The notes: a model not told the origin generated them from the sequence alone. Counted from the stretch's first letter, positions 1,153 to 30,274 are shown. The stretch is 30,855 bases of DNA from a virus (IMGVR_UViG_2874956758_000002:1-30855); one strand, 5' to 3'. Made by a program: numbers and translations.

Positions 1153-1196
1153 GACAGCCGTAAGCGTACAGCGAGGGCCGTATTGACGGGGATGTG

Positions 1197-2735
1197 TTAT
1201 TCAGCTGGCAGTGCTATGCGCCACGGAAGCAGTTCGCTGACCCGGTTGACCGGCCAGTCTGCTATGACGCCAAGCACATGGCGAAGGTAGCTTTCTGGAT
1301 CCACGTCATTCAGTTTGCACGTCCCGATCAGGCTGTACAGTAGCGCTCCCCGCTCACCACCATGGTCAGAGCCGAAGAACAGGAAGTTTTTACGACCCAG
1401 ACTGACCGCCCGCAGGGCATTTTCAGCGATGTTGTTGTCGATTTCCACCCAGCCATCGTTCGCATAGTACGTCAGTGCCGGCCACTGGTTAAGTGCGTAC
1501 GCGAACGCCTTCGCCAACTCTGAGTGTCGCGACAGGGTCTTCATCTTTTCACGCAACCAGCTTTCCAGGGATTTCAACAGCGGTTTCGTTTTTCGCTGAC
1601 GTTCAGCAAGCCGCTGCTCTGCCGGCATTCCCCTTATATCCGCCTCTATGGCGTACAACTGACCGAGCTGCTCCAGGGCTTCTTCCGTCAGTGCTGACGG
1701 GATGCGGACGTGCACATCGTGGATCTTTCGGCGGGCATGAGCCCAGCAGGCAGCTTCCGTTATCCCACCATTGCGGTACAGCTCGTTGAACCCGGCGTAC
1801 GCATCCGCTTGCAGCACACCGCTGAAGCAAGCAAGATGAGTCTGCGGATGGATGCCTTTTCTGTCCGGGCTGTAAGCGAACCACACTGCAGGTGCCAACG
1901 CTGACCCGGCATTGCGGTCATCACGAACATACGCCCACAACCGCCCGGTCTTCGTCTTCTTATTACCCGGCATCAGTACCTGGACCGGGGTATCATCAGC
2001 ATGGAGTTTGCCGTCAGTCATGACATAGCCATGAAGCGCCTCTTCCAGCGGAGACAGCAGCCGGCAGCATGCATCCACCCAGCCCGACAGCAGTGAACGG
2101 CTCAGCTCCACACCTTGCCGGCCGTATATTTCTGACTGGCGATACAGCGGGGTGTGCTCTGCATACTTCGAGGTCAGCACGCGGGCCAGCAGCCCCGGTC
2201 CGGCGATACCCCGCTCGATGGGCCGCGAAGGTGCAGGTGCCTGCACGATGGCATCGCACTGAGTACAGGCATGTTTTTCCCGTACCGTCCGGATAACCCG
2301 GAAGGCACTACGCATCAACTCCAGCTGTTCGGCGGTATCCTCGCCCAGATAGCTCAGTGAACCGCCGCAGTTCGGGCAGCACGGCGCCGCAGGCAACAGT
2401 CGCTTTTCGTCACGGGGTAGTGATTCAGGGAACGGCTTACGGGTGCGGGTCTGACGCAACGGACGCTGTACTGCCGGGTCATACACCCTACCAGTCAGCG
2501 TATCGCTCTCTTTCTGAAGCCGGTTCAGATCGGCTTCCATTTGTGCGATACGGCGGGAGACTTTTTCGGAACGACTGCCGAAGTTCATCCGGCGGAGTTT
2601 ATCCAGCTGCGCCTGCAGATGGTCTATTTCGCGCTCCCGGTTGCTCAGCTTTTCCTGCAGGGCATGGATCAGCGCTTCCTGTTCGGCCAGGCGCTGTTTC
2701 AGCAGGAAGATGTCGTCAGAAGAGATGTCGTTCAT
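1197..2735 (-). CDS. tnpC: IS66-family transposase TnpC
   Basis: 512-aa ORF with N-terminal coiled-coil, CxxC zinc-finger motifs (CCPNCGG, CTQCD) and the characteristic IS66 transposase core; near-identical to ORF 19558..21090. Confidence 0.9.
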
Positions 2736-2784
2736 AAGCCCGTATTTTACCGGGCTTATTCTGTGACAACCAGGATAAAGAGAT

Positions 2785-3132
2785 TTACAGCATGGTCAGG
2801 GAGGTCAGCAGCCGCTTAGGCTGTCGCCAGTCGATACCTTCCAGCAGCATCGCCAGCTGCGCCTGCGTAAGGAACACTTTGCCATCACGGGCTGACGGCC
2901 AGGCGAAGCGCCCACGCTCCAGCCGTTTGGTCAGGAGGCACAGTCCGTCACCGGTGGACCACAGCAGTTTAACCTGACTGCCGCTGCGGCCCCGGAAAAT
3001 GAAAACATGGCCGGACATGGGATCGTCTTTCAGCGCCGTCTGTACTTTCGCAGCCAGACCGTTGAAGCCATTTCTCATATCGGTGATACCGGCAACCAGC
3101 CAAATTTTGGTCCCGGAAGGTAACGGGATCAT
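2785..3132 (-). CDS. tnpB: IS66-family accessory protein TnpB (orf2)
   Basis: 115-aa ORF in the typical position, overlapping the upstream orfA stop (ATGA); identical to ORF 19161..19508. Confidence 0.9.
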
Positions 3133-3530
3133 CGCTTCAGTTCCTGTATCAGCAGAGTCAGGAGCTTTTCGCTGACATTGCCATTGAAGCGGAGCGTCCC
3201 GTGCCGGAACGTTACCTCACAGCTGATACTGAGGGTTTCCGGATCCTCTGCGAGCGATTCTGGCTGTTCGGCAGCTGCATCGAGAGTCACAGGAAGTAGC
3301 TGGGGGCTCTCTGAAGAAGGTAATAGCAGCTTTCCCTCGCGCCATTGTTGTCGCCATTTGAACAACAGATTGGCGTTAATGCCATTTTCAAGAGCAAGTT
3401 TTGAGATGGATATCCCGGGTTCACAGGAGGCAGCAACGAGCTGCTGTTTAAATTCGGGAGGATAATTAGGGCAGCCTTTTCGCCTGCCGGGAGTCACATT
3501 TTTCTGCATATCTGACACTTTGGTTCCCAC
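3129..3530 (-). CDS. tnpA: IS66-family accessory protein TnpA (orf1)
   Basis: 133-aa ORF, first gene of the IS66 operon; identical to ORF 18763..19164. Confidence 0.9.
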   Translation of the reverse strand: MGTKVSDMQKNVTPGRRKGCPNYPPEFKQQLVAASCEPGISISKLALENGINANLLFKWRQQWREGKLLLPSSESPQLLPVTLDAAAEQPESLAEDPETLSISCEVTFRHGTLRFNGNVSEKLLTLLIQELKR

Positions 3531-3600
3531 TACTTATTGGTGGACACCACTTTGTCTAATTCGTCAGATTCTGACCAGACGGTTCAGGCTGTACGCTTAC

Positions 3601-3704
3601 CGTTCTCCACCGACCTCTGTCAGATCGATTTCCCAGAGCACCACGCTGGCCGACTGCTCCGCACGGGTGCATTCATTCAGTGTTTCCTGCCGGATATCCT
3701 GCAT
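3601..3704 (-). pseudogene. L: 5' fragment (34 codons) of lambda-like minor tail protein L gene, interrupted by IS66 copy 1
   Basis: Minus-strand translation from ATG at 3702..3704 reads MQDIRQETLNECTRAEQSASVVLWEIDLTEVGGE, matching the lambda gpL N-terminus as recalled. Ends in GGAGAACG directly abutting the IS66 terminus. Confidence 0.85.
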
Positions 3705-4033
3705 CAGTTCACCACCTGTTCAAACTCTGCGCTGAACTCAACACGCAGCATACTGACCCGCGACGACCATTTTGCGCAGGTCACCTTTATCTGCCGCCAC
3801 TCATAAGGCGGCGTCCACAGAAAGGACTTCCAGCCCCCGTGCTCAGCCAGAAACGACTCAAGCGCCGTGGCCTCCCAACGGGGAACAGAAAGCGTCACGC
3901 TGTACGTTTTCAGGTCGGCATTCAGCCCGGCAGGCGCTCGCTGGGAATAGCCATCACCAAAGCGCACCTTTCTTACGGAAGGGGCCGAAGCCACATCCAT
4001 ACCGGGTTTCACTTTCCAGCGGAAGGTTTTCAT
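3704..4033 (-). CDS. M: lambda-like minor tail protein M
   Basis: 109-aa ORF (MKTFRWKVKPGMDV...FEQVVN) matching lambda gpM in sequence and length; stop overlaps the L start in ATGA. Confidence 0.9.
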   Translation of the reverse strand: MKTFRWKVKPGMDVASAPSVRKVRFGDGYSQRAPAGLNADLKTYSVTLSVPRWEATALESFLAEHGGWKSFLWTPPYEWRQIKVTCAKWSSRVSMLRVEFSAEFEQVVN

Positions 4034-6591
4034 CGTCCACCTCCGGAGAACAGACCACCATCGCGCATCTGCCCGGTCACAACATCCATTGCCGCCTTAC
4101 GGGCTACGTCATAAACCGCCTTCAGCGCCTGTGGCCCTATCTGACCGTTCGTGCCGTCGTTGTTAATCACCACATGGTTATTCTGCTCAAACGTCCCGGA
4201 CGCCTGCGAGCGGCTGTCCGCCATGCTGCCCGGTGTACCGACATAACCGCCGGTGGCATAGCCGCGCATCAGCCGGTAGAGATTTCCCACGCCAATCCGG
4301 CTGGTTGCCTCCTTCGTGAAGACAAATTCACCACGGTGAACAATCCCCGCTGGCTCATATTTGCCGCCGGTTCCCGTAAATCCTCCGGTTGCAAAATGGA
4401 ATTTCGCCGCAGCGGCCTGAATGGCTGTACCGCCTGACGCGGATGCGCCGCCACCAACAGCCCCGCCAATGGCGCTGCCGATACTCCCGACAATCCCCAC
4501 CATTGCCTGCTTAAGCAGAATTTCTGTCATCATGGACAGCACGGAACGGGTGAAGCTGCGCCAGTTCTGCTCACTGCCGGTCAGCATCGCCGCCATATTC
4601 TGTGCAATACCATCAAAGGTCTGCGTGGCTGCACTTTTTACCTGCGACATACTGTCCGTGGCGCTCTCTTCCCACTCACTCCAGCCGGACTTCAGACCTG
4701 CCATCCAGCTCCCGCGAAGCTGGTCTTCAGCCGCCCAGGTCTTTTTCTGCTCTGACATGACGTTATTCAGCGCCAGCGGATTATCGCCATACTGTTCCTT
4801 CAGGCGCTGTTCCGTGGCTTCCCGTTCTGCCTGCCGGTCAGTCAGCCCCCGGCTTTTCGCATCAATGGCGGCCCGTTTTGCCCGTTGCTGCTGTGCGAAT
4901 TTATCCGCCTGCTGCGCCAGCGCGTTCAGGCGCTCCTGATACGTAACCTTGTCGCCAAGTGCAGCCAGCTGGCGTTTGTACTCCAGCGTCTCATCTTTAT
5001 GCGCCAGCAGGGATTTCTCCTGTGCAGACAGCTGGCGACGTTGCGCCGCCTCCTCCAGTACCGCGAACTGACTCTCCGCCTTCCACAAATCCCGGCGCTG
5101 CTGGCTGATTTTCTCATTTGCTCCGGCATGCTTCTCCAGCGTCCGGAGTTCAGCCTGAAGCGTCAGCAGGGCAGCATGAGCACTGTCTTCCTGACGATCG
5201 CCCGCAGACACCTTCACGCCGGACTGTTTCGGCTTTTTCAGCGTCGCTTCATAGTCCTTTTTCGCCGCCGCCATCAGCGTGTTGTAATCTGCCTGCAGAA
5301 TTTTCCCGTCCTTCAGTGCCTTGTTCAGTTCTTCCTGACGGGCGGTATATTTCTCCAGCGGCGTCTGCAGCCGTTCGTAAGCTTTCTGCGCCTCTTCGGT
5401 ATATTTCAGCCGTGACGCTTCAGTATCGCTCTGCTGCTGCGCATTTTTGTCCTGTTGACTCTGCTGTTCAGCCTTCTTTCTCGCGGCTTCAAGCGCAAGA
5501 CGGGCCTTTTCACGATCATCCCAGTAACGCGCCCGCGCTTCATCGTTAACAAAATAATCATCCTTGCGCAGACTCCAGATGTCGTCCGCTTTCTTAAACG
5601 CAGCCTCTGCCTTAATCAGCATCTCCTGAGCGGTATCAGGACGACCAATATCCAGCACCGCATCCCACATGGATTTGAATGCCCGCGCTGTCCTGTCTGC
5701 CCAGGTCTCCAGCGTACCCATGTTCTCTTTCAGACGGCGGGTCTGGTCATCAAACCCTTTCGTCGCGGCCTCGTTCGCCGCCTGCAATGCCCCGGCTTCT
5801 TCGCCGGAACGCTGCAACTGAGCAACATACGCAATCTGCTCCGCCGTCACGTTATGGAACTGGCGCGCCATCGCTGTCAGCCCCGACGTCGGGTCAGTGG
5901 TCAGCTTCCCGAAGGCTTCAGCGACCTTGTCCACCTCCACGCCGGATGCAGAGGAGAAACGCGCCACACTCTGGCTGATGGACGCAATCTGAGCCTCACC
6001 GCTTACCCCCGCCTTAACCAGTGAGCTGAGTGACTCGCTGGTCTGGTTAAACGTCAGCCCTGCCGCCTGGCCAGCTCTGGACAGGACCAGCATACGATCT
6101 GCCGTCAGCCCCGACTGATTGCCGGAAAGGACCAGCGTTTTGTTGAAATCGGACAGGGTTGAGTTGCCCTGATACCAGGCATACGCCAGCGCACCGGTCG
6201 CCACCGCCAGCGAGGTGGCCCCGACCATCGGCAGGGTGATCGCACCGGCAAGCCCCCGGAACATGGGGATTATCCCGCCGAAGGAGTCCTTCACCTGCCC
6301 CCCCTGTTGCAGCAGGATCAGCCACGGACTTTGCCCGCCTGCAAGCTGCGTGGCCACGTCGGTGAACTGTGCAGGCAGCATACGCATGGCGGCTTTATAC
6401 TGCCCGACGGAAATCCCCGCTTTCTGTGCAGCCAGCGCCTGCCGGTTCATCGACTGTTCAACGACTGCCGCTGTTTTTTTCGCATCACTTTCCGTACCGG
6501 AAAAATGACGCCTGACTCTGGCCATCTGCTCGTCAAATCTGGCCGCATCCAGACTTAAATCAACGACCAGATCGCCTACCGGTTCAGCCAT
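4030..6591 (-). CDS. H: lambda-like tail tape measure protein H
   Basis: 853-aa ORF, same length as lambda gpH; long coiled-coil/Ala-Gln-rich centre and Gly-rich C-terminal region; positioned between G/T and M. Confidence 0.9.
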   Translation of the reverse strand: MAEPVGDLVVDLSLDAARFDEQMARVRRHFSGTESDAKKTAAVVEQSMNRQALAAQKAGISVGQYKAAMRMLPAQFTDVATQLAGGQSPWLILLQQGGQVKDSFGGIIPMFRGLAGAITLPMVGATSLAVATGALAYAWYQGNSTLSDFNKTLVLSGNQSGLTADRMLVLSRAGQAAGLTFNQTSESLSSLVKAGVSGEAQIASISQSVARFSSASGVEVDKVAEAFGKLTTDPTSGLTAMARQFHNVTAEQIAYVAQLQRSGEEAGALQAANEAATKGFDDQTRRLKENMGTLETWADRTARAFKSMWDAVLDIGRPDTAQEMLIKAEAAFKKADDIWSLRKDDYFVNDEARARYWDDREKARLALEAARKKAEQQSQQDKNAQQQSDTEASRLKYTEEAQKAYERLQTPLEKYTARQEELNKALKDGKILQADYNTLMAAAKKDYEATLKKPKQSGVKVSAGDRQEDSAHAALLTLQAELRTLEKHAGANEKISQQRRDLWKAESQFAVLEEAAQRRQLSAQEKSLLAHKDETLEYKRQLAALGDKVTYQERLNALAQQADKFAQQQRAKRAAIDAKSRGLTDRQAEREATEQRLKEQYGDNPLALNNVMSEQKKTWAAEDQLRGSWMAGLKSGWSEWEESATDSMSQVKSAATQTFDGIAQNMAAMLTGSEQNWRSFTRSVLSMMTEILLKQAMVGIVGSIGSAIGGAVGGGASASGGTAIQAAAAKFHFATGGFTGTGGKYEPAGIVHRGEFVFTKEATSRIGVGNLYRLMRGYATGGYVGTPGSMADSRSQASGTFEQNNHVVINNDGTNGQIGPQALKAVYDVARKAAMDVVTGQMRDGGLFSGGGR

Positions 6592-6973
6592 ACCGGACTC
6601 CTCCTGCGATCCCTTCTGATACTGTCATCAGCATTACGTCATCCTCCGTCATGTCCGCTACATCCGGGGAAGCGGGGATAACTTCTTTCCCGTCCGGGCC
6701 AAAACGAACGCCTCCGGCAAGCCCTACCGCTTTCTGCATCAGCACATCATCTTCAGGCTCTTCGTCAGCCTCACGCCGGTTAAGCAGACTGAAATCCAGC
6801 GGATGCATATCCGGATCGCTGAAAAACAGGCTGAGCACGGTATATGTCAGCCCGGAAAAGTGCATATCCAGCAGAACATCATGAAAATAATGGGTACTGT
6901 AAAAGCGGTGCCAGTCGGGTCGCCCCATCTCACGCGCCAGTTTCAGGGCAAAACTCAGCTCACCGTCGAACAC
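6584..6973 (-). CDS. T: T-frame portion of tail assembly chaperone GT (expressed by -1 frameshift from G)
   Basis: ORF in the -1 frame relative to G, overlapping the G 3' end and the H start; acidic residues typical of the gpT domain. Confidence 0.8.
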   Translation of the reverse strand: MFDGELSFALKLAREMGRPDWHRFYSTHYFHDVLLDMHFSGLTYTVLSLFFSDPDMHPLDFSLLNRREADEEPEDDVLMQKAVGLAGGVRFGPDGKEVIPASPDVADMTEDDVMLMTVSEGIAGGVRYG

Positions 6974-7377
6974 TTTCCCGCAGAAACAGGCTCTGCAGGC
7001 CCGGCGTCATCTGCCTGTTCAGGAGCATCATTCACCACAAACTCATACATACCGGACAGCCGGTACACCACGTTTTCAGCATGAGAAATTGCCTCCGTGG
7101 GCCAGGTGGTAAGCACTTCCTGCTCAATCTGTTTAACGGCTTCATTCATGGAAGGCAGCTTTGTCTTCTGCGGATGGTTATGCCACAGGGACATCGCCAC
7201 CACAAAAGCGCCGGTTCTGATGGCGTCTTCCACAGTAAACTTCCGGTTGCTGTCTGACTCCGCCTGTTCTGCCTGTCGTTTCATCAGGGCGAGATGCTCA
7301 ATACGCTGCAGGGCTGACAGTTCAGAAAGCGTGACGGTCACACCGTTATGTTCAAATGATTCGGTTTTCAGGAACAT
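6955..7377 (-). CDS. G: lambda-like tail assembly chaperone G
   Basis: 140-aa ORF (MFLKTESFEHNGVTVTLSELSALQRIEHL...) matching lambda gpG. Confidence 0.9.
   Translation of the reverse strand: MFLKTESFEHNGVTVTLSELSALQRIEHLALMKRQAEQAESDSNRKFTVEDAIRTGAFVVAMSLWHNHPQKTKLPSMNEAVKQIEQEVLTTWPTEAISHAENVVYRLSGMYEFVVNDAPEQADDAGPAEPVSAGKCSTVS
6973..6979 (-). promoter_or_regulatory. Programmed -1 ribosomal frameshift slippery heptamer GGGAAAG (G to GT)
   Basis: Plus strand reads CTTTCCC at 6973..6979, i.e. GGGAAAG on the coding strand at the G/T overlap, as in lambda. Confidence 0.8.
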
Positions 7378-7392
7378 CGCTGACTCTCCGGA

Positions 7393-8133
7393 TTAACTGG
7401 CGGTGACGTTGATTTCTGCAACCGCAGCAAGTTCACCATTACCGGATACGACAGGAATGTTGACCTTGCCTGCAGCAACACCTTTCACGGTGATGGTCAT
7501 ACCACTGACCGACACGGTGGCTTTTGTTTTATCCGCAGACACCGCACGGAGGCTCTTGTCGGTTGCGCCTTCCGGCTGGAATGCCACGGTCAGCGTGGTG
7601 CTCTGCCCTTTCACCACCGAGGTGCTGGCAGGCGTCACGGTCATGCCGGTTGCCGCTGTGACCGTGCTGCGATCTTCTGCCATCGACGGACGTCCCACGT
7701 TGGTGACTTTCACCGTGCGGGTGATCACTTCCTTCGCCGTCACCGCCTTACCGATACTGCTGACCCAGCCGCGGAACACATCGACCGTGCCGTTCGGGAA
7801 GCGGATTTTATAGGCACGGGTATCCCCTTCATTAAACCACGCCAGCAGCGCCTGCTGCCCCTGCTCTCCGGGCATCCACGCCAGCGTGAAGCTGGTATCT
7901 CCGGCAGATTTCTGCCCCTGCCCGGTCGCAGTCCAGTCCGCATCTTCATCATCGAGATAGCTGTCGTCATAGGACTCAGCGGTCAGTTCGCCGGGCGTCA
8001 GGTCTTTAACTTTAGCCAGACGCGACCAGTCAACGTCTGAAAGCGGGTTCGCATAAGGATCACCGTTCCCCTTATAAACCCACAGTGTGGTCCCGGCCCC
8101 TTTCACCGGCATTACTGGATTTGATACAGGCAT
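7393..8133 (-). CDS. V: lambda-like major tail protein V
   Basis: Matches lambda gpV from [22 protein letters not shown]; start chosen at the internal Met (8133) giving 246 aa as in lambda; the ORF track extends 10 codons further upstream. Confidence 0.85.
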
Positions 8134-8140
8134 ATCGTCC

Positions 8141-8536
8141 TCACATTTCATAGGTAATGACATAAGTCAGATCGGCTGAACTCCACAGGCCCGCATCATC
8201 GTCGCGCCGGTAGTCATAGCCGCTGGCCACCATACTGGTGATCAAATCTGACAGTGCCGGGATATCGCTCATCACCGGATAAATCCGGGACTCCATCCAC
8301 GAATCCAGCTCTGAATCCGGCACCTGAGCAGGCAGGAAAACTTCAATATGCAGCTCCGCCTGCCAGGTATCGCTGTCCAGCTCTTCGCCCGTGTATTCAG
8401 CGCCGGTGAGATAAACGGCAATTGCCGGAAAATCCGCCTCATCAAAAACAGCGGGGCGACCATCAAAAAGCGTCGCCCCGGTGTCATGCTTTTCCAGTGC
8501 ATCCAGTACGGCTGCACGGAGTTCAGTATGTTTCAT
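8141..8536 (-). CDS. U: lambda-like tail terminator protein U
   Basis: 131-aa ORF ([33 protein letters not shown]...) matching lambda gpU. Confidence 0.9.
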
Positions 8537-9110
8537 CGCTTTATTACCATTCTCAGTTGATGCTGCAGCGCATAGCCCAGCTCTTTCGGAAGACGTTCAC
8601 GCCGTATCCGTTCAATATTCTGTTTAAATGCCGTGGTAAGCGGCACCGCCATCGGAATTTTCACCACATCAATGGGGTAACGATTTTTCCCGGCCACACG
8701 CTGCATGACATGCCACCGGCCATTTTTCAGTTGCTGAATAAACGCGCCGGGAATACGACGGTTACCCACCACAAGCACGCTGCCGCCACCTTTCAGGGAT
8801 GAACGCTGCCCCTTTTTACGACGCCTGCGGCGGGACAGGACAACCCGCGCATTACCCAGCTTGATTACGGGCAAATCCCCCGGTTAACTTTGATTCTGGC
8901 CTGCGGATTTTTGACCGTGGCCCTTTTCAGCCTGGCCCTTTCCTTTACCAGTTTCCGGCGTACCTTTGTCTCACGGGCAACCTGTGACGCCGACTGCGAT
9001 ATCGCGGATGAAGCAACGCGGTTAATGGCCATTGCGGCGGCACCAGGGACCGCCGTTTTGCTGATACGGCTGAGGTTTTCAACGGCCTGCTCAAGACCTT
9101 TTATGGCCAT
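8533..9110 (-). pseudogene. Z: lambda-like tail completion protein Z, disrupted by a 1-bp deletion in a G run (or sequencing error)
   Basis: N-terminal 78 aa (ORF 8865..9110) and C-terminal 113 aa (ORF 8533..8874) both match lambda gpZ but lie in different frames. The frame break is at the C5 run 8877..8881 (G5 on the coding strand), where lambda as recalled has G6. Confidence 0.8.
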
Positions 9111-9121
9111 ACATCCCCCTT

Positions 9122-9475
9122 TCAGCGGCGACGGTTAACGGCAGGCGGTACGCCCCGTCCAAGCCAGAGATGACAGCTTCCACCATCATCCGGCGAAACC
9201 CGATCTACCCAGAAGTTTTCCTCACCGATGGTCAGCGTGTCTCCACGCCGCAGCTGCAGCACCTCATCAGTCCGGACAAACAGGGGCGGGCTGGAGCCTT
9301 CAACGCGCACGCCCTGTCCGGCATAGCTGATATTTTCAGGGTCATCAAAAACACCACGTATCACAGCACCGGACTGCTCACCGGATGTCATGGTGGCTGA
9401 CGTTCCCATGTACCCGCGTATCGTTTCATCGGCTCGGGCAATGGCAGCATCGAACAGATTATCGAAATCAGCCAC
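9122..9475 (-). CDS. FII: lambda-like head-tail joining protein FII
   Basis: 117-aa ORF (MADFDNLFDAAIARADETIRGYMG...) matching lambda gpFII in sequence and length. Confidence 0.9.
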   Translation of the reverse strand: MADFDNLFDAAIARADETIRGYMGTSATMTSGEQSGAVIRGVFDDPENISYAGQGVRVEGSSPPLFVRTDEVLQLRRGDTLTIGEENFWVDRVSPDDGGSCHLWLGRGVPPAVNRRR

Positions 9476-9486
9476 AGCGCCTCCCG

Positions 9487-9882
9487 TTATTGCATTCTGG
9501 CCAGGCCGCGCTCTGTCATTTCAACTGCCACACCGGCAGAGACACGGAACGCCGTTCCCGGCAGCACAAATGCCACAGGTTCATCCCGCGTGGCGTGAAG
9601 TGCATCGGTATGCAGCGTCACCAGTGCCACAACCGTGACCAGAGCAGCCGTATCAGTCACGGTATCCGTCTGTGCTGATACCACCTCATTTTTATGTCCG
9701 GTCAGCGCATTTTCCGGGCTGACAGACGTGTCCTGACCGGCTGCGTCATCCGTGTCATCAAGCTCCTCTTCCAGCTCTGCCACACGGAGCGCCAGTTCTT
9801 CTTTCGTCCCCGTCAGGCTGACATCACGGTTCAGTTGCTCACCCAGCGACCGGAGACGGGCAATCAGTTCATCTTTCGTCAT
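9487..9882 (-). CDS. FI: lambda-like DNA packaging protein FI
   Basis: Matches lambda gpFI from MTKDELIARLRSLGEQLNRDVSL; start at the internal Met preceded by GGAGGA. Confidence 0.85.
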   Translation of the reverse strand: MTKDELIARLRSLGEQLNRDVSLTGTKEELALRVAELEEELDDTDDAAGQDTSVSPENALTGHKNEVVSAQTDTVTDTAALVTVVALVTLHTDALHATRDEPVAFVLPGTAFRVSAGVAVEMTERGLARMQ

Positions 9883-9923
9883 GGACTCCTCCACAGAGAG
9901 AAAATGGCCCCGAAGGGCCATGA

Positions 9924-10961: not shown

Positions 10962-11178
10962 ACGCATCCTCTTTGCATTCATTAAAAATAATTGTGGATA
11001 TATGCTATCACCGATATTTGTCATGCGAACACATGCAACCGAGTGCAATGTTGTATAAAGTTTTGGGGTGACAACTTCAGTGCGGACAATTAGTGTTAAT
11101 ATCTTCACTCCCTTTGGTCGGGATTTATGTAGCATGCTGGAAAATTTATTTTTTCCGGCCTTTTTTTATTGGCAATAT

Positions 11179-11628: not shown

Positions 11629-11634
11629 GCTGCC

Positions 11635-11961
11635 TGAGGTAGCCTGAGTTTAACGGACACTCCTTCCTGAAATAGAATGGCATCAGAAGGAGCTAATAAT
11701 GAGCAGAAAAACCCAACGTTACTCTAAAGAGTTCAAAGCCGAAGCTGTCAGAACGGTTCTTGAAAATCAACTTTCGATCAGTGAAGGCGCTTCCCGATTA
11801 TCCCTTCCTGAAGGCACTTTAGGACAATGGGTTACCGCCGCCAGAAAAGGGCTCGGTACTCCTGGTTCCCGCACGGTGGCTGAACTGGAATCTGAAATTC
11901 TGCAACTGCGTAAGGCGTTAAATGAAGCTCGCCTTGAGCGAGATATATTAAAAAAAGCAAC
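11635..11961 (+). mobile_element. IS3-family (IS600-like) left-end fragment: IRL plus 5' ~93 codons of orfA, arm 1 of an inverted pair flanking IS30
   Basis: Begins TGAGGTAGCCTGAGTTTAACGG. Encodes the OrfA N-terminus MSRKTQRYSKEFKAEAVRTVLENQ...ILKKATVDS, then runs into the IS30 end; the rest of the element is absent. Confidence 0.7.
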
Positions 11962-13182
11962 TGTAGATTCAATTGGTCAACGCAACAGTTATGTGAAAAC
12001 ATGGGGTTGCGGAGGTTTTTTGAATGAGACGAACATTTACAGCAGAGGAAAAAGCCTCTGTTTTTGAACTATGGAAGAACGGAACAGGCTTCAGTGAAAT
12101 AGCGAATATCCTGGGTTCAAAACCCGGAACGATCTTCACTATGTTAAGGGATACTGGCGGCATAAAACCCCATGAGCGTAAGCGGGCTGTAGCTCACCTG
12201 ACACTGTCTGAGCGCGAGGAGATACGAGCTGGTTTGTCAGCCAAAATGAGCATTCGTGCGATAGCTACTGCGCTGAATCGCAGTCCTTCGACGATCTCAC
12301 GTGAAGTTCAGCGTAATCGGGGCAGACGCTATTACAAAGCTGTTGATGCTAATAACCGAGCCAACAGAATGGCGAAAAGGCCAAAACCGTGCTTACTGGA
12401 TCAAAATTTACCATTGCGAAAGCTTGTTCTGGAAAAGCTGGAGATGAAATGGTCTCCAGAGCAAATATCAGGATGGTTAAGGCGAACAAAACCACGTCAA
12501 AAAACGCTGCGAATATCACCTGAGACAATTTATAAAACGCTGTACTTTCGTAGCCGTGAAGCGCTACACCACCTGAATATACAGCATCTGCGACGGTCGC
12601 ATAGCCTTCGCCATGGCAGGCGTCATACCCGCAAAGGCGAAAGAGGTACGATTAACATAGTGAACGGAACACCAATTCACGAACGTTCCCGAAATATCGA
12701 TAACAGACGCTCTCTGGGACATTGGGAGGGCGATTTAGTCTCAGGTACAAAAAACTCTCATATAGCCACACTTGTAGACCGAAAATCACGTTATACGATC
12801 ATCCTTAGACTCAGGGGCAAAGATTCTGTCTCAGTAAATCAGGCTCTTACCGACAAATTCCTGAGTTTACCGTCAGAACTCAGAAAATCACTGACATGGG
12901 ACAGAGGAATGGAACTGGCCAGACATCTAGAATTTACTGTCAGCACCGGCGTTAAAGTTTACTTCTGCGATCCTCAGAGTCCTTGGCAGCGGGGAACAAA
13001 TGAGAACACAAATGGGCTAATTCGGCAGTACTTTCCTAAAAAGACATGTCTTGCCCAATATACTCAACATGAACTAGATCTGGTTGCTGCTCAGCTAAAC
13101 AACAGACCGAGAAAGACACTGAAGTTCAAAACACCGAAAGAGATAATTGAAAGGGGTGTTGCATTGACAGATTGAATCTACA
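11962..13182 (+). mobile_element. IS30, complete (1221 bp)
   Basis: Terminal inverted repeats TGTAGATTCAAT at both ends; single 383-aa transposase ORF; length matches IS30. Confidence 0.9.
12024..13175 (+). CDS. insI: IS30 transposase
   Basis: 383-aa ORF with N-terminal HTH and C-terminal DDE domain, recognised as the IS30 transposase. Confidence 0.9.
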   Translation: MRRTFTAEEKASVFELWKNGTGFSEIANILGSKPGTIFTMLRDTGGIKPHERKRAVAHLTLSEREEIRAGLSAKMSIRAIATALNRSPSTISREVQRNRGRRYYKAVDANNRANRMAKRPKPCLLDQNLPLRKLVLEKLEMKWSPEQISGWLRRTKPRQKTLRISPETIYKTLYFRSREALHHLNIQHLRRSHSLRHGRRHTRKGERGTINIVNGTPIHERSRNIDNRRSLGHWEGDLVSGTKNSHIATLVDRKSRYTIILRLRGKDSVSVNQALTDKFLSLPSELRKSLTWDRGMELARHLEFTVSTGVKVYFCDPQSPWQRGTNENTNGLIRQYFPKKTCLAQYTQHELDLVAAQLNNRPRKTLKFKTPKEIIERGVALTD

Positions 13183-13508
13183 GTTGCTTTTTTTAATATA
13201 TCTCGCTCAAGGCGAGCTTCATTTAACGCCTTACGCAGTTGCAGAATTTCAGATTCCAGTTCAGCCACCGTGCGGGAACCAGGAGTACCGAGCCCTTTTC
13301 TGGCGGCGGTAACCCATTGTCCTAAAGTGCCTTCAGGAAGGGATAATCGGGAAGCGCCTTCACTGATCGAAAGTTGATTTTCAAGAACCGTTCTGACAGC
13401 TTCGGCTTTGAACTCTTTAGAGTAACGTTGGGTTTTTCTGCTCATTATTAGCTCCTTCTGATGCCATTCTATTTCAGGAAGGAGTGTCCGTTAAACTCAG
13501 GCTACCTC
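13183..13508 (-). mobile_element. IS3-family (IS600-like) left-end fragment, arm 2, inverted copy of 11635..11961
   Basis: Reverse complement reproduces the same IRL and OrfA N-terminus (ORF 13095..13445 is identical through VDSI). Its outer end overlaps the xis start codon. Confidence 0.7.
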
Positions 13509-13745
13509 ATGGGCAATGTGATTCAACTGGCTCCCAATGAATGGGTTTGTGAAAGCGTTCTTATCGCAATTACCGGGCTCAAACCAGGCACAATTCTCCG
13601 AGCCCGGAAAGAATGCTGGATGGTAGGAAGAGAGTATATTCACGTATCACCAGACGGTAATCCAAAGCCATCCAGCGAATGTATGTATAACAGAAAAGCA
13701 ATAGATGCCTGGGTCTCTTCAATGAAAAACAAACAACCTGGGTGA
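13508..13745 (+). CDS. xis: putative excisionase (DUF1233-type Xis)
   Basis: Small ORF immediately upstream of and co-oriented with the integrase; motif pattern (IQLAPNEWV...LTGLKPGTI.RARKECWMVGREY) resembles DUF1233 excisionases as recalled. Start taken at ATG 13508..13510; the ORF track begins 16 codons upstream, inside the IS arm. Confidence 0.6.
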
Positions 13746-13800
13746 TTTAATGCCATGAAGTATGTAAGCTCGTATCGCTCTTGGGCGTCTGGAGGTATCA

Positions 13801-15114
13801 ATGGATAAAGTCAAATATCCAACAGGCGTCGAAAACCACGGTGGCACATTACGCATCTGGTTTAATTTTAAAGGTAAACGTGTCAGGGAAAATCTTGGTG
13901 TCCCTGACACTGCCAAGAACAGGAAGATCGCCGGAGAGCTGCGGACATCTGTATGTTTTGCCATTCGTACAGGAAATTTTGATTATGCTGCGCAGTTCCC
14001 TGACTCTCCTAACCTCAAGGCTTTTGGGGTAAATAAAAAAGAAATTACGGTGAAAGAACTTGAAGAAAAATGGCTGGATCTGAAACGAATGGAAATCTCT
14101 GCAAATGCATTCAATCGCTATGAATCCATTGCAAGGATGATGGTTCCGAAGATTGGTGGCAACCGACTGGTATCAGCAGTGACCAAAGAGGAATTGCTGT
14201 ATATCAGGAAAGATTTGCTGACCGGATACCAAAATCCAACAAAAGGTAAAGCTCCAGTAAAAGGACGAAGCGTTGTCACAGTAAATTATTACATGACAAC
14301 AATCGCTGGAATGTTTCAGTTTGCTGCAGATCACGGTTACTTAGAAGCAAATCCCTTCGAGGGAATTAAGCCTCTTAAAAGAGCCAAGGCAGAACCAGAT
14401 CCGCTAACTCGTGACGAATTTATTCGCCTGATAGATGCTTGCCGGCATCAGCAGACAAAAAACCTGTGGTCATTGGCTGTGTACACAGGAATGCGTCATG
14501 GTGAACTGGTCTCCCTGGCCTGGGAAGATATCGATCTGAAAGCAGGAACAATTACTATCAGGCGCAATTATACGAAACTCGGTGAGTTCACTCTACCTAA
14601 AACTGAAGCAAGTACAAACAGGGTTGTGCATCTTATCCAGCCCGCTATCAGTGTCCTGAAAAATCAGGCTGAAATGACAAGACTGGGTAAGCAGCACAAC
14701 ATCAAGGTTCAACTACGTGAATATGGACGTTCAGTAAATCATGAATGTACTTTCGTATTTAACCCCCAGGTGGTTAGAAAAAGCAAACAGGTAGGTTTTA
14801 TCTACAAGGTAGATTCCATTGGCGACTCATGGGAAACAGCCATTAAACGTGCAGGCATCAGGCATCGAAAGGCATACCAGTCACGACACACTTATGCGTG
14901 CTGGTCATTATCTGCCGGAGCAAATCCAAGCTTCATTGCCAGCCAGATGGGGCATGCAAGTGCCCAGATGGTGTTCAATGTATACGGAGCATGGATGACT
15001 GACAGCAATGCAGAACAGATCGCAATGCTGAATCAGAAGCTGGCAGATTATGTCCCAATGATGTCCCATGGTCACCAAAGTGACACAAGAGGCTTATTAA
15101 AATCAGTGAGTTAG
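13801..15114 (+). CDS. int: prophage tyrosine integrase
   Basis: 437-aa ORF with a C-terminal tyrosine-recombinase catalytic region (R...HxxR...Y); RBS GGAGG upstream; reads toward the host junction as lambda int does. Confidence 0.9.
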   Translation: MDKVKYPTGVENHGGTLRIWFNFKGKRVRENLGVPDTAKNRKIAGELRTSVCFAIRTGNFDYAAQFPDSPNLKAFGVNKKEITVKELEEKWLDLKRMEISANAFNRYESIARMMVPKIGGNRLVSAVTKEELLYIRKDLLTGYQNPTKGKAPVKGRSVVTVNYYMTTIAGMFQFAADHGYLEANPFEGIKPLKRAKAEPDPLTRDEFIRLIDACRHQQTKNLWSLAVYTGMRHGELVSLAWEDIDLKAGTITIRRNYTKLGEFTLPKTEASTNRVVHLIQPAISVLKNQAEMTRLGKQHNIKVQLREYGRSVNHECTFVFNPQVVRKSKQVGFIYKVDSIGDSWETAIKRAGIRHRKAYQSRHTYACWSLSAGANPSFIASQMGHASAQMVFNVYGAWMTDSNAEQIAMLNQKLADYVPMMSHGHQSDTRGLLKSVS

Positions 15115-15140
15115 CTTTTAATACCCGTCATGTTAACTGT
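15115..15140. other. prophage/host attachment junction (att core region) within yecE
   Basis: Integrase stop at 15112..15114 is followed within ~10 bp by sequence that, read in the yecE frame, matches the YecE interior as recalled (...RHVNCVEGNTT). Exact core not determinable without the other junction. Confidence 0.5.
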
Positions 15141-15866
15141 GTGGAGGGCAACACCACGCTTTACGCCCTGCCCAAACTCGAGGTTGTCCTGCGCTGGCGT
15201 GAGCAGACCACAGATGACTTCCGCTTCTGTTTTAAGTTTCCGGCGACCATTTCGCATCAGGCAGCATTACGGTATTGCGATGATTTAGTGACTGAATTTT
15301 TGACCCGCATGTCACCGTTAGCGCCGCGCATTGGGCAATACTGGGTGCAACTGCCTGCCACATTTGGCCCACGGGATCTGCCTGCGCTTTGGCATTTTCT
15401 CGACTCTCTTCCCGGCGAGTTTAATTATGGTGTGGAAGTCCGCCATCCACAGTTTTTCGCCAAAGGGGAAGAGGAACAAACACTTAATCGCGGTTTACAT
15501 CAGCGCGGCGTTAATCGGGTGATTTTAGACAGCCGCCCGGTTCATGCAGCACGTCCACACAGTGAAGCTATTCGCGACGCTCAACGAAAAAAACCTAAAG
15601 TTCCGGTACATGCTGTACTGACGGCGACAAATCCGCTGATCCTTTTTATCGGTAGTGATGATATGACGCAAAACCGGGAATTATTTCAGGTCTGGTTACA
15701 AAAATTAGCGCAGTGGCATCAGACCACTACGCCTTATCTTTTTTTACATACGCCAGATATTGCCCAGGCCCCGGAACTGGTACATATCCTGTGGGAAGAC
15801 TTACGTAAAACGCTTCCAGAGATCGGAGCAGTTCCGGCTATTCCACAGCAATCTTCTCTTTTCTGA
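15141..15866 (+). CDS. yecE: DUF72-family protein YecE, 5'-truncated by prophage integration
   Basis: 241-aa ORF directly upstream of yecN-cmoA-cmoB as in the E. coli K-12 gene order; N-terminal ~30 aa missing relative to recalled YecE. Confidence 0.7.
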   Translation: MEGNTTLYALPKLEVVLRWREQTTDDFRFCFKFPATISHQAALRYCDDLVTEFLTRMSPLAPRIGQYWVQLPATFGPRDLPALWHFLDSLPGEFNYGVEVRHPQFFAKGEEEQTLNRGLHQRGVNRVILDSRPVHAARPHSEAIRDAQRKKPKVPVHAVLTATNPLILFIGSDDMTQNRELFQVWLQKLAQWHQTTTPYLFLHTPDIAQAPELVHILWEDLRKTLPEIGAVPAIPQQSSLF

Positions 15867-15918
15867 ATTTGCCACCTATCATAGACAGGTGCCATCGGCC
15901 ATTTTAAAGGGAGTTTGT

Positions 15919-18066
<2,148 letters not shown>

Positions 18067-18071
18067 AGATT

Positions 18072-18094
18072 AGCGCCCGTTTCCGGGCGCTTTT
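18072..18094. terminator. rho-independent terminator between cmoB and the torZ remnant (likely bidirectional)
   Basis: GC-rich hairpin AGCGCCCG-TTTC-CGGGCGCT followed by TTTT, immediately after the cmoB stop. Confidence 0.7.
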
Positions 18095-18100
18095 CACGTC

Positions 18101-18331
18101 TTATGCCTGAACAGCTGGCTGATCAAACGCCGTTAACTTCGGCGCATTGCTCGTATATTTTTCGATATACACCAGCGCAGAGTTACCGGCACAGACATTT
18201 GCCAGCTGAGAGCTGGGGATATCCGCCGTTAACACGTTCGCACTGCCGTTTTTACACAAGCCATTTTCCAGATCTGGCCATGCACCTTCATGCACGCATA
18301 CCACGCCTTTTTTGATCCCGTCAGTCACCAC
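18101..18331 (-). pseudogene. torZ: 3' remnant of a molybdopterin oxidoreductase gene, probably torZ
   Basis: 76 codons with DMSO-reductase-family C-terminal character, convergent with cmoB as torZ is in K-12. No ATG (frame starts at GTG); the remaining ~700 codons are absent, replaced upstream by IS sequence. Confidence 0.55.
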
Positions 18332-18387
18332 CGCGCCTGTCAGAATCGGGGATGCGGACGATTTCCTGGACTCTCAGGAGATAACAC

Positions 18388-18692
18388 ATGTTTACTGAAG
18401 AAGAAAAAATCCGCGCCATTGAGCTTTATTTCAAATATGGTAAGAAGCTGGCTCCCGTCGTACGCGAACTGGGCTACCCTTCGAAAAGAAATCTGCGGCG
18501 TTGGATCCGCTCATGGGAAGCAGGTGGTGGCGCAAAAGAATCTATTCGTCATAAGCACCGTTACTCCGATGAACAAAAACAGGTTGCCGTTGAACATTAT
18601 CTTAACCACGGCTGCTGCCTGGCGTTTACCAGCAGAGCCCTGGGTTATCCCTGCACTGATGTACTCGCTCGCTGGGTTAATGAACTTTATCC
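18388..18692 (+). pseudogene. IS3-family (IS150-group-like) orfA 5' fragment, truncated by IS66 copy 2
   Basis: 102-aa ORF with two tandem HTH-like motifs; the ORF runs straight into the IS66 terminus, which supplies the last base of the final codon and the stop. Confidence 0.6.
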
Positions 18693-18762
18693 GTAAGCGT
18701 ACAGCCTGAACCGTCTGGTCAGAATCTGACGAATTAGACAAAGTGGTGTCCACCAATAAGTA

Positions 18763-19164
18763 GTGGGAACCAAAGTGTCAGATATGCAGAAAAATGTGAC
18801 TCCCGGCAGGCGAAAAGGCTGCCCTAATTATCCTCCCGAATTTAAACAGCAGCTCGTTGCTGCCTCCTGTGAACCCGGGATATCCATCTCAAAACTTGCT
18901 CTTGAAAATGGCATTAACGCCAATCTGTTGTTCAAATGGCGACAACAATGGCGCGAGGGAAAGCTGCTATTACCTTCTTCAGAGAGCCCCCAGCTACTTC
19001 CTGTGACTCTCGATGCAGCTGCCGAACAGCCAGAATCGCTCGCAGAGGACCCGGAAACCCTCAGTATCAGCTGTGAGGTAACGTTCCGGCACGGGACGCT
19101 CCGCTTCAATGGCAATGTCAGCGAAAAGCTCCTGACTCTGCTGATACAGGAACTGAAGCGATGA
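18763..19164 (+). CDS. tnpA: IS66-family TnpA (orf1)
   Basis: 133 aa, identical to 3129..3530 product. Confidence 0.9.
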   Translation: MGTKVSDMQKNVTPGRRKGCPNYPPEFKQQLVAASCEPGISISKLALENGINANLLFKWRQQWREGKLLLPSSESPQLLPVTLDAAAEQPESLAEDPETLSISCEVTFRHGTLRFNGNVSEKLLTLLIQELKR

Positions 19165-19508
19165 TCCCGTTACCTTCCGGGACCAAAATTTGGCTGGTTG
19201 CCGGTATCACCGATATGAGAAATGGCTTCAACGGTCTGGCTGCGAAAGTACAGACGGCGCTGAAAGACGATCCCATGTCCGGCCATGTTTTCATTTTCCG
19301 GGGCCGCAGCGGCAGTCAGGTTAAACTGCTGTGGTCCACCGGTGACGGACTGTGCCTCCTGACCAAACGGCTGGAGCGTGGGCGCTTCGCCTGGCCGTCA
19401 GCCCGTGATGGCAAAGTGTTCCTTACGCAGGCGCAGCTGGCGATGCTGCTGGAAGGTATCGACTGGCGACAGCCTAAGCGGCTGCTGACCTCCCTGACCA
19501 TGCTGTAA
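19161..19508 (+). CDS. tnpB: IS66-family TnpB (orf2)
   Basis: 115 aa, identical to 2785..3132 product. Confidence 0.9.
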
Positions 19509-19557
19509 ATCTCTTTATCCTGGTTGTCACAGAATAAGCCCGGTAAAATACGGGCTT

Positions 19558-21090
19558 ATGAACGACATCTCTTCTGACGACATCTTCCTGCTGAAACAGC
19601 GCCTGGCCGAACAGGAGATCCACGCCCTGCAGGAAAAGCTGAGCAACCGGGAGCGCGAAATAGACCATCTGCAGGCGCAGCTGGATAAACTCCGCCGGAT
19701 GAACTTCGGCAGTCGTTCCGAAAAAGTCTCCCGCCGTATCGCACAAATGGAAGCCGATCTGAACCGGCTTCAGAAAGAGAGCGATACGCTGACTGGTAGG
19801 GTGTATGACCCGGCAGTACAGCGTCCGTTGCGTCAGACCCGCACCCGTAAGCCGTTCCCTGAATCACTACCCCGTGACGAAAAGCGACTGTTGCCTGTGG
19901 CGCCGTGCTGCCCGAACTGCGGCGGTTCACTGAGCTATCTGGGCGAGGATACCGCCGAACAGCTGGAGTTGATGCGTAGTGCCTTCCGGGTTATCCGGAC
20001 GGTACGGGAAAAACATGCCTGTACTCAGTGCGATGCCATCGTGCAGGCACCTGCACCTTCGCGGCCCATCGAGCGGGGTATCGCCGGACCGGGGCTGCTG
20101 GCCCGCGTGCTGACCTCGAAGTATGCAGAGCACACCCCGCTGTATCGCCAGTCAGAAATATACGGCCGGCAAGGTGTGGAGCTGAGCCGTTCACTGCTGT
20201 CGGGCTGGGTGGATGCATGCTGCCGGCTGCTGTCTCCGCTGGAAGAGGCGCTTCATGGCTATGTCATGACTGACGGCAAACTCCATGCTGATGATACCCC
20301 GGTCCAGGTACTGATGCCGGGTAATAAGAAGACGAAGACCGGGCGGTTGTGGGCGTATGTTCGTGATGACCGCAATGCCGGGTCAGCGTTGGCACCTGCA
20401 GTGTGGTTCGCTTACAGCCCGGACAGAAAAGGCATCCATCCGCAGACTCATCTTGCTTGCTTCAGCGGTGTGCTGCAAGCGGATGCGTACGCCGGGTTCA
20501 ACGAGCTGTACCGCAATGGTGGGATAACGGAAGCTGCCTGCTGGGCTCATGCCCGCCGAAAGATCCACGATGTGCACGTCCGCATCCCGTCAGCACTGAC
20601 GGAAGAAGCCCTGGAGCAGCTCGGTCAGTTGTACGCCATAGAGGCGGATATAAGGGGAATGCCGGCAGAGCAGCGGCTTGCTGAACGTCAGCGAAAAACG
20701 AAACCGCTGTTGAAATCCCTGGAAAGCTGGTTGCGTGAAAAGATGAAGACCCTGTCGCGACACTCAGAGTTGGCGAAGGCGTTCGCGTACGCACTTAACC
20801 AGTGGCCGGCACTGACGTACTATGCGAACGATGGCTGGGTGGAAATCGACAACAACATCGCTGAAAATGCCCTGCGGGCGGTCAGTCTGGGTCGTAAAAA
20901 CTTCCTGTTCTTCGGCTCTGACCATGGTGGTGAGCGGGGAGCGCTACTGTACAGCCTGATCGGGACGTGCAAACTGAATGACGTGGATCCAGAAAGCTAC
21001 CTTCGCCATGTGCTTGGCGTCATAGCAGACTGGCCGGTCAACCGGGTCAGCGAACTGCTTCCGTGGCGCATAGCACTGCCAGCTGAATAA
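19558..21090 (+). CDS. tnpC: IS66-family transposase TnpC
   Basis: 510 aa; versus copy 1 lacks two codons (EQEIHALQ vs [10 protein letters not shown]) and has A for V at one position (PAAPCC vs PVAPCC). Confidence 0.9.
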
Positions 21091-21127
21091 CACATCCCCG
21101 TCAATACGGCCCTCGCTGTACGCTTAC

Positions 21128-21730
21128 GGAGAACGTTATTTTTTCTGTAATGAGCAGAACGAAAAAGGTGAGCCGGTCACCTGGCAGGGGCGACAGTATC
21201 AGCCGTATCCCATTCAGGGGAGTGGTTTTGAACTGAATGGCAAAGGCACCAGTACGCGCCCCACGCTGACGGTTTCTAACCTGTTCGGTATGGTCACCGG
21301 GATGGCGGAAGATCTGCAGAGTCTGGTCGGCGGAACGGTGGTCCGGCGTAAGGTTTACGCCCGTTTTCTGGATGCGGTGAACTTCGTCAACGGAAACAGT
21401 GACGCCGATCCGGAGCAGGAGGTGATCAGCCGCTGGCGCATTGAGCAGTGCAGCGAACTGAGCGCGGTGAGTGCCTCTTTTGTACTGTCCACGCCGACGG
21501 AAACGGACGGCGCTGTTTTTCCGGGACGTATCATGCTGGCCAACACCTGCACCTGGACCTATCGCGGCGATGAGTGCGGTTATCACGGTCCGGCGGTCGC
21601 GGATGAATATGACCAGCCAACGTCCGATATCACGAAGGATAAATGCAGCAAATGCCTGAGCGGTTGTAAGTTCCGCAATAACGTCGGCAACTTTGGCGGC
21701 TTCCTTTCCATTAACAAACTTTCGCAGTAA
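21128..21730 (+). pseudogene. L: 3' fragment of lambda-like minor tail protein L gene, separated from its 5' end by IS66 and inversion
   Basis: In-frame translation from 21128 reads GERYFFCNEQNEKGEPVTWQGRQYQPYPIQGSGFELNGKGTSTRPTLTVSNL...SINKLSQ, matching lambda gpL residues ~33 to the end. Begins with GGAGAACG, the same 8 bp that end the 5' fragment at 3601..3608. Confidence 0.9.
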
Positions 21731-23105: not shown

Positions 23106-26478
<3,373 letters not shown>

Positions 26479-27148: not shown

Positions 27149-27173
27149 TTAGCCAGGTAACACAGTGTTATGA

Positions 27174-27200
27174 CAGCCCGCCGGTTCAGGCGGGCTTTTT
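27174..27200 (+). terminator. rho-independent terminator downstream of lom
   Basis: Hairpin AGCCCGCC-GGTTCA-GGCGGGCT followed by TTTTTG. Confidence 0.65.
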
Positions 27201-27211
27201 GTGGGGTGAAT

Positions 27212-30200: not shown

Positions 30201-30274
30201 CCGTTAACGCTGCTGGTAACGCGGAAAACACCGTCAAAAACATCGCATTTAACTATATTGTGAGGCTTGCATAA
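27212..30274 (+). CDS. stf: side tail fibre protein Stf, full length
   Basis: Starts [26 protein letters not shown] as in lambda Stf; long Ala/Ser/Thr-rich repeat shaft; C-terminal His-rich GAHxH repeats and terminal [22 protein letters not shown]. The ORF track start at 27170 overlaps the lom terminator and is rejected. Confidence 0.85.

Follow-up and report, generated by a model that had tools for sequence, protein, structure and literature searches.

A 15-kb chromosomal inversion bounded by two inverted ISEc8 copies in a Shigella dysenteriae lineage

Insertion sequences (ISs) of the IS66 family generate a target-site duplication of 8 bp (PMC6778807), and in Agrobacterium swapped 8-bp flanks have served to diagnose recombination between copies of IS66 (PMC6778807). 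ISEc8, a member of this family, is present in nine copies in the O157:H7 strains Sakai and FRIK804 (PMC7430833). Inversions with IS breakpoints are familiar from Shigella genomes (PMC8072062), and IS26, of the IS6 family, produces inversions by intramolecular transposition 'in trans' (PMC12502706). Here we analyze a 30,855-nucleotide stretch of DNA (IMGVR_UViG_2874956758_000002:1-30855, referred to in its full length as the window) in which the two halves of the lambda-like tail gene L lie on opposite strands, each abutting a different ISEc8 copy. Exact-protein matches identified the window as part of Shigella dysenteriae CP026831.1 (GCA_002950055.1, 4,880,735 bp), an assembly listed as a S. 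dysenteriae ATCC strain (PMC12679885, PMC9830988) and described as an outlier among Shigella (PMC9830988). The 15,092-bp segment at 3601-18692 is an apparently fixed chromosomal inversion bounded by two inverted ISEc8 copies in this S. dysenteriae lineage.

The inversion relative to the ancestral gene order, and a reciprocal exchange of flanks between the two ISEc8 copies, are established by the four IS junctions, by the seamless rejoining of both interrupted sequences, by the restored synteny and by the same arrangement in a second strain. The features on which the first of these rest are as follows.

1160-3600, minus strand: ISEc8 copy A (IS66 family), 2441 bp, tnpC end at 1160 and tnpA end at 3600
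1197-2735, 2785-3132 and 3129-3530, minus strand: tnpC (512 amino acids), tnpB and tnpA of copy A
18693-21127, plus strand: ISEc8 copy B, 2435 bp, tnpA end at 18693 and tnpC end at 21127
1152-1159: 8-bp flank to the left of copy A, TGACAGCC
3601-3608, minus strand: 8-bp flank to the right of copy A, CGTTCTCC, the reverse complement of GGAGAACG; copy 1 of the target-site duplication
18685-18692: 8-bp flank to the left of copy B, CTTTATCC
21128-21135, plus strand: 8-bp flank to the right of copy B, GGAGAACG; copy 2 of the target-site duplication
3601-3704, minus strand: 5' fragment of L, 104 nucleotides (34 codons and 2 nucleotides), which reads on into ISEc8 and ends as a 35-amino-acid open reading frame (ORF)
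21128-21730, plus strand: 3' fragment of L, 603 nucleotides, Pfam Phage_tail_L (E = 2.5e-99)

The two L halves are 17.5 kb apart (21128 - 3601), and their coordinates, strands and association with different IS66 copies are as the original prediction had given them, as is the 15,092-bp length of the segment between the inverted copies. The claim that both fragment ends carry the same 8 bp held on re-inspection, GGAGAACG and CGTTCTCC being reverse complements. When both strands of the window were searched, GGAGAACG was found exactly twice, solely at the two L-side IS flanks, and the probability of an 8-bp match arising by chance at two fixed positions is 4^-8, or ~1.5e-5. When 21128-21730 is appended to the reverse complement of 3609-3704, so that one copy of the 8 bp is retained, the predicted 699-bp gene results, with an uninterrupted ORF of 232 amino acids. 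The rejoined M-L-K region aligned to intact prophages as one block running through the joint (for example 1992 bp at 98.1% identity, gap-free). Thus, the 8-bp target-site duplication typical of IS66 elements is present at L once the flanks are re-paired, and is absent at the site of the other insertion, which lies in an IS3-family element.

The boundaries of the two copies follow from the window's one long inverted repeat, which aligned in two blocks (1158-2670 with 19617-21129, and 2677-3600 with 18693-19616) and in which the true element ends were set from the terminal GTAAGCG. Terminal inverted repeats starting with this motif are present in both copies, beginning GTAAGCGTACAGCC at the tnpA end and GTAAGCGTACAGCG at the tnpC end (reverse complement). 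Both copies have the three genes of an IS66 element, with tnpA, tnpB and tnpC each intact and called, and the Pfam domains DDE_Tnp_IS66 (E = 4e-107), zf-IS66, LZ_Tnp_IS66, TnpB_IS66 and HTH_Tnp_1 were recovered in ISEc8. Copy B showed 99.1% identity over its full length to an 'ISEc8 family' element of O157:H7 strain 4276, compared with only 84.9% to ISEc22. By these sequence features, the elements are bona fide ISEc8.

The sole differences between copies A and B are one single-nucleotide polymorphism (SNP) at 2664 and a 6-bp insertion/deletion (indel) at 2671-2676, the deletion shortening the tnpC product of copy B to 510 amino acids. This exact 510-amino-acid TnpC had no other occurrence in the protein index. 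Copy A has the canonical ISEc8 sequence, while the 6-bp deletion and the nearby SNP are carried by copy B (19617-19623) and by both ISEc8 copies of a sister strain described below. Because the sister strain has the deleted variant at the A position too, copy A of the source genome was probably changed later, either by mutation or by gene conversion with a further ISEc8 copy as donor. For the same reason we rejected the SNP and the indel as a crossover marker or as a detector of repeated flipping. The deleted tnpC shared by the sister's copies and the uniqueness of the copy B protein agree with descent of one copy from the other.

The second flank pair is formed by an IS3-family element that had itself interrupted the host gene torZ.

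1-1159, minus strand: 3' part of the IS3-family element, from element position 415, with a 383-amino-acid transposase ORF at 1-1152; outer flank of copy A
18348-18692, plus strand: 5' 345 bp of the IS3-family element, with a 25-bp terminal inverted repeat at 18348 and the orfA ATG at 18388; inner flank of copy B
18101-18347, minus strand: 3' end of torZ, 247 bp, cut by the IS3-family element, its last 3 bp (ATC) being the target duplication of that element

The ORF at 1-1152 matched the NCBIfam IS3 family transposase (E = 2e-116), which rules out torZ or other host DNA there; only the 247 bp at 18101-18347 represent torZ in the window. The two IS3-family pieces lie on opposite strands 17.5 kb apart, each abutting a different ISEc8 copy, and become collinear after re-inversion, a rejoining that the original prediction had missed. 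A composite of both pieces was ~99% identical to intact 1.6-kb elements of E. coli. In alignments to intact copies the pieces correspond to 301-645 and 715-1873, with 646-714 missing between them; in the numbering of the element, the left piece stops at position 345 and the right one begins at 415, so that 69 bp are gone and no duplication is left at this ISEc8 site. The absence of a matching duplication between 1152-1159 and 18685-18692, already pointed out in the original prediction, is therefore real, and the accompanying view that more than one event was involved was right, the 69-bp loss from the IS3-family element at the other ISEc8 site being the explanation. The element extends ~45 bp beyond the left edge of the window and is followed there by ATC and the remaining 5' part of torZ, and its 3-bp ATC duplication in torZ becomes visible only with 3601-18692 turned back.

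Re-inversion in silico restored continuity on both sides. Both flank pairs, those of L and of the IS3-family element, became continuous, as did the torZ duplication and the late operon. The host genes carried on the segment are listed here as identified by NCBIfam equivalogs.

15141-15866, plus strand: yecE lacking its first 31 codons
15919-16314, plus strand: yecN
16355-17098, plus strand: cmoA
17095-18066, plus strand: cmoB

The order yecE-yecN-cmoA-cmoB-torZ is collinear in 5,139 complete E. coli genomes at up to 98.4% identity, and the outgroups have the ancestral orientation. The sequence beyond the left edge of the window contains the 5' part of torZ followed by torY, cutC, yecM and argS, and only re-inversion makes the orientation of the segment fit the E. 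coli order; the re-inverted sequence reads argS-yecM-cutC-torY-torZ::(IS3-family::ISEc8)-cmoB-cmoA-yecN-yecE'-int. The native host order had been expected to return on re-inversion; it does so, with int beside the truncated yecE, and agrees with the E. coli genomes. The same holds for the expectation of a collinear late operon, as the re-inverted late region, from the C-terminal part of the capsid gene to J, aligned to an intact prophage of O157:H7 ATCC 35150 as a single 11.7-kb block at 96.3% identity. What had been put forward as the flip of a host-plus-prophage segment is thus sustained as an inversion, but 1-1159 belongs to an IS3-family element with its transposase gene, in place of the supposed host DNA, and what was taken for a prophage is a mosaic in decay. 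The host genes at 15100-18347 were at most 98.4% identical to the best match among 5,426 complete E. coli genomes, in agreement with the outlier status of the assembly reported in PMC9830988.

All four junctions recur, with unchanged sequence and order, on a 4.84-Mb contig of a second genome of the lineage, GCA_031665835.1, which is likewise inverted. This genome represents a different strain: a 1.9-kb IS600/IS30 composite present in the source is missing from it, its Z gene is intact and its J gene shows a 39-bp indel relative to the source. The 6-bp-deleted tnpC variant is present in both of its ISEc8 copies. The occurrence of the same junctions in two distinct strains implies that the inversion is older than the strain split. 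Sampling of the lineage is very thin, comprising only two long assemblies, both inverted, and the short-read assemblies of the lineage break at ISEc8 or IS3-family boundaries and do not show the orientation.

Searches of the 5,426 complete E. coli genomes returned none in which ISEc8 interrupts L at this position or lies within this IS3-family element. An L 5' fragment-ISEc8-L 3' fragment sequence built in silico had no match at the L site in these genomes; the sole match covering at least 80% of this query was ISEc22 in a tape-measure gene, and the remaining matches placed ISEc22 in the K gene and ISEc8 in the interval from I to J. These recurrent insertions in lambdoid tail modules were observed in the unrelated E. 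coli strains Z1323PEC0008, 10035210-2 and O157:H7 4276, never at the L site described here. Neither of the two ISEc8/IS3-family junctions was found in the same genomes. A 20-bp extension into an ISEc8/IS3-family flank in O55:H7 was a chance alignment, and in the 581 complete E. coli genomes that seemed to span the other junction, the IS3-family element actually interrupts a tnpA gene of the IS66 type. Exact protein look-ups were similarly negative: nearly all matches to the 35-amino-acid product of the L 5' fragment were intact L genes cut by contig ends (...GGAGAACGTTA) with no IS junction, the 146-amino-acid ORF of the L 3' fragment matched only noisy long-read assemblies with a frameshifted L, and the 102-amino-acid chimeric orfA product matched, besides the source, contig-end cuts and one contig with a different IS66 element, the same junction not being found. 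In ERR712683 contig 143, the IS3-family element is cut at the identical nucleotide (after ...CTTTATCC) by the end of a different IS66-family element (GTAAGCGTAAACTGACC...), and the cut site may be an insertion hotspot for IS66-family elements.

We favor homologous recombination between the inverted ISEc8 copies, after insertion into L, as the origin of the inversion, with a probability of roughly 70%. Under this mechanism, one ISEc8 would ancestrally have resided inside the 1.6-kb IS3-family element, itself already in torZ, at a site from which 69 bp would have been lost with no target duplication left. A second, sister ISEc8 would have inserted in the opposite orientation into L of the neighboring decayed lambdoid prophage, 15 kb away, duplicating GGAGAACG. 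RecA-type host recombination between the 2.4-kb inverted copies would then have flipped all the DNA between them, namely part of the late operon, int, xis, yecE', yecN, cmoA, cmoB, the 3' end of torZ and the 5' part of the IS3-family element, so that each ISEc8 copy would be left with one flank from each original site. The repeats needed for such recombination are present, as the 2441-bp and 2435-bp copies are near-identical, inverted and separated by 15,092 bp. We infer both the order of these events and the use of recombination, instead of a transposition step, for the flip. The consequence of the inversion was probably neutral, since the prophage was already defective and torZ already broken.

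Four observations weigh against recombination as the cause of the flip. The 69-bp loss without duplication at the donor site requires a separate event if recombination acted alone; the SNP and the indel between the copies give no crossover position, with the deleted variant in both copies of the sister strain; and the un-inverted intermediate with both ISEc8 copies, in which direct GGAGAACG repeats would flank the ISEc8 in L, was found in none of the 5,426 complete E. coli genomes, while both long assemblies of the lineage are inverted. The fourth is that a one-step intramolecular replicative transposition would yield exactly this final sequence. In that event the ISEc8 in the IS3-family element would attack GGAGAACG in L on the same chromosome, and a single event would add a further copy in opposite orientation, invert the DNA in between and leave the 8-bp target in reverse-complementary form at the two ends, with no separate insertion into L and no recombination. 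The geometry of the locus is exact for this route, namely a-IS-rc(T)...rc(b)-inverted IS-T (where T is the target and rc the reverse complement), with the target copies inside the segment at 3601-3608 and outside it at 21128-21135, and the same geometry serves as the signature of IS26 intramolecular transposition 'in trans' (PMC12502706). Intramolecular replicative transposition also has a second classic outcome, an adjacent loss with no duplication, as seen in the 69 bp missing at the donor site, and the sister's two copies share a 6-bp-deleted variant unseen in the ISEc8 of O157:H7. These two points and the lack of an intermediate lean toward the one-step route, but none of the three is decisive, and the missing intermediate counts for little when just two long assemblies of the lineage exist. 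Moreover, we found no report of replicative transposition by IS66-family elements in the literature searched, in which IS66 elements make simple insertions with 8-bp duplications and recombine between copies (PMC6778807), whereas in the IS-rich genomes of Shigella inverted repeats of 2.4 kb commonly recombine (PMC8072062). We therefore regard the one-step route as an unlikely origin, though one with real claims. A shade more doubtful still is the wider proposition that ISEc8, from a family whose transposition chemistry we found nowhere described, transposes intramolecularly by a replicative IS26/Tn3-like route and that one donor copy left both the 69-bp deletion and the L-splitting inversion. 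The original prediction of IS66 insertion into L followed by a flip is accordingly supported throughout as regards the inversion, while its two-step order shares its end product with a single intramolecular transposition.

An assembly artefact, in which a wrong path was taken through the 2.4-kb repeat and the real L is contiguous around one ISEc8, had been recognized from the outset as a possible source of error. The short-read assemblies of the lineage, all of which end at ISEc8/IS3-family boundaries, leave the orientation unsettled; the second long assembly (4.84 Mb, against 4.88 Mb for the source) has the same four junctions in the same order. Two independent long-contig assemblies of different strains would need to contain the identical error, and the source copies differ by the SNP and the 6-bp indel, which aids placement by an assembler. 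A second, distinct long-contig assembly with all four junctions thus argues against an artefact, which we consider highly improbable. Equally remote is an origin of the L fragments from two prophages, each hit by an IS66-family element, with the 8-bp match reflecting conservation of L: the prophage is a mosaic, of the yecE type at its left end and of the icd type at its right, and IS66-family insertions are frequent in E. coli lambdoid tail genes, but two independent insertions at one nucleotide in exactly complementary orientations would be required, the second flank pair is reciprocal as well, the L halves and their neighbors are collinear with one prophage over 11.7 kb, and ISEc8 was found at this site in no other genome searched.

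The remaining prophage genes, assigned from Pfam matches, gene calls and prophage alignments, fall inside and outside the inverted segment. The late genes inside it span 3704-11628 on the minus strand.

3704-4033, minus strand: M
4030-6591, minus strand: H
6584-6973, minus strand: T
6955-7377, minus strand: G
7393-8133, minus strand: V
8141-8536, minus strand: U
8533-9110, minus strand: Z, split into two ORFs of 81 amino acids each (intact, 192 amino acids, in the sister strain)
9122-9475, minus strand: FII
9487-9882, minus strand: FI
9924-11135, minus strand: chimeric capsid gene
11179-11628, minus strand: satellite-derived ssb
11635-13509: IS30 unit, 1875 bp, with a complete IS30 at 11962-13182 (1221 bp) between two perfectly inverted 327-bp copies of the IS600 left end
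13509-13745, plus strand: xis (NCBIfam, Pfam)
13801-15114, plus strand: tyrosine integrase (NCBIfam, Pfam), beside the attachment junction in yecE
21736-22479, plus strand, outside the segment: K (this and the next five from Pfam, gene calls and alignment to the O157:H7 prophage)
22476-23048, plus strand, outside the segment: I
23109-26153, plus strand, outside the segment: J
26549-27148, plus strand, outside the segment: lom
27170-30274, plus strand, outside the segment: stf
30274-30855, plus strand, outside the segment: tfa

J encodes 1014 amino acids and lacks the C-terminal Ig_GpJ_C receptor-binding domain of its homologues of 1132-1160 amino acids, and together with the split Z this truncation is a further sign of a defunct prophage. 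Between xis and the capsid gene we found no early, lysis, terminase, portal, protease or decoration genes, and the prophage is not a complete, collinear one with the rest of yecE at its other end. The integrase gene adjoins the truncated yecE (profile match from position 32), and xis, int and yecE are arranged in the same way in E. coli BEC1-S17-ESBL-09. On its other side xis abuts an IS600-derived structure, which is followed by the satellite ssb. The chimeric capsid gene, 'E', has an N-terminal part from a phage satellite and a C-terminal part from the phage, the crossover lying in a shared 135 bp (10192-10326); a matching satellite (int, primase, ssb, capsid, decoration, small terminase) occurs in intact form in E. 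coli SCU-102, where it interrupts a lambdoid prophage's capsid gene. Both outer ends of the IS30 unit are IS600 left ends, and the unit lies inside the inverted segment and had no part in the inversion. The sister genome lacks this unit and retains a 10-12-bp remnant of an IS600 end (CAGGCTACCTCA) at its xis/ssb joint, which suggests that the unit is ancestral and was deleted in the sister.

To the right of the window, beginning at most 120 bp past tfa, are genes for a Mn-catalase, two ferritin-like proteins and a KGG stress protein, followed by genes for a sit-like ABC transporter and by a fragment of icd. The O157:H7 ATCC 35150 prophage, which has its integrase at icd, contains the same tfa/Mn-catalase junction (97.7%). 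The mosaic therefore combines a left end of the yecE type with a right end of the icd type, pointing to at least one earlier large rearrangement. The mosaic leaves the inversion call unweakened, as the L halves and their neighbors are collinear with a single prophage type and the second flank pair is independently reciprocal.

The locus provides a clean worked example that permits nucleotide-level reconstruction of all four junctions, of the two interrupted sequences and of the ancestral synteny. The arrangement is common to two strains and can serve to mark this divergent group of S. dysenteriae as a lineage. It also calls for caution in annotation, as L, torZ and the IS3-family transposase gene are each split into parts 17.5 kb apart on opposite strands. 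There is little biological gain in the event itself, with the prophage already dead and IS-bounded inversions routine in Shigella. Of wider interest, if true, would be the production of inversions by IS66-family elements in a single transposition step, a question raised by the locus and not answerable from it.

This particular inversion was absent from the literature searched, and its closest relatives are as follows. On Agrobacterium tumefaciens pAt15955 (PMC6778807), as here, IS66-family elements with 8-bp duplications have flanks from two insertion sites and recombination was inferred, but the pAt15955 copies are direct repeats that gave a 270-kb plasmid deletion, whereas inverted copies here bound a 15-kb chromosomal inversion, one of whose original sites was already without its duplication and 69 bp. 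The ISEc8 elements of O157:H7 have the same tnpA-tnpB-tnpC layout and also lie in lambdoid tail regions, for instance between I and J in strain 4276, but ISEc8 occupies this L site or the IS3-family site in no complete E. coli genome (n = 5,426). The 1,220-kb 'in trans' inversion by IS26 in Salmonella Mbandaka (PMC12502706) shares with our locus the inverted IS copies and the 8-bp target as reverse complements; its replicative pathway is demonstrated, whereas we found none reported for ISEc8 or IS66, and the donor here is without a duplication of its own. The IS-mediated inversions of Shigella (PMC8072062) likewise involve an IS-rich genome, IS breakpoints and gene decay (here of torZ and prophage genes), but concern large synteny blocks, with IS1, IS3, IS4 and IS91 enriched in all Shigella, in contrast to the small ISEc8 inversion reconstructed here at the nucleotide level. 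The event is thus one more of the familiar inversions bounded by ISs, a new instance in a genus known for them.

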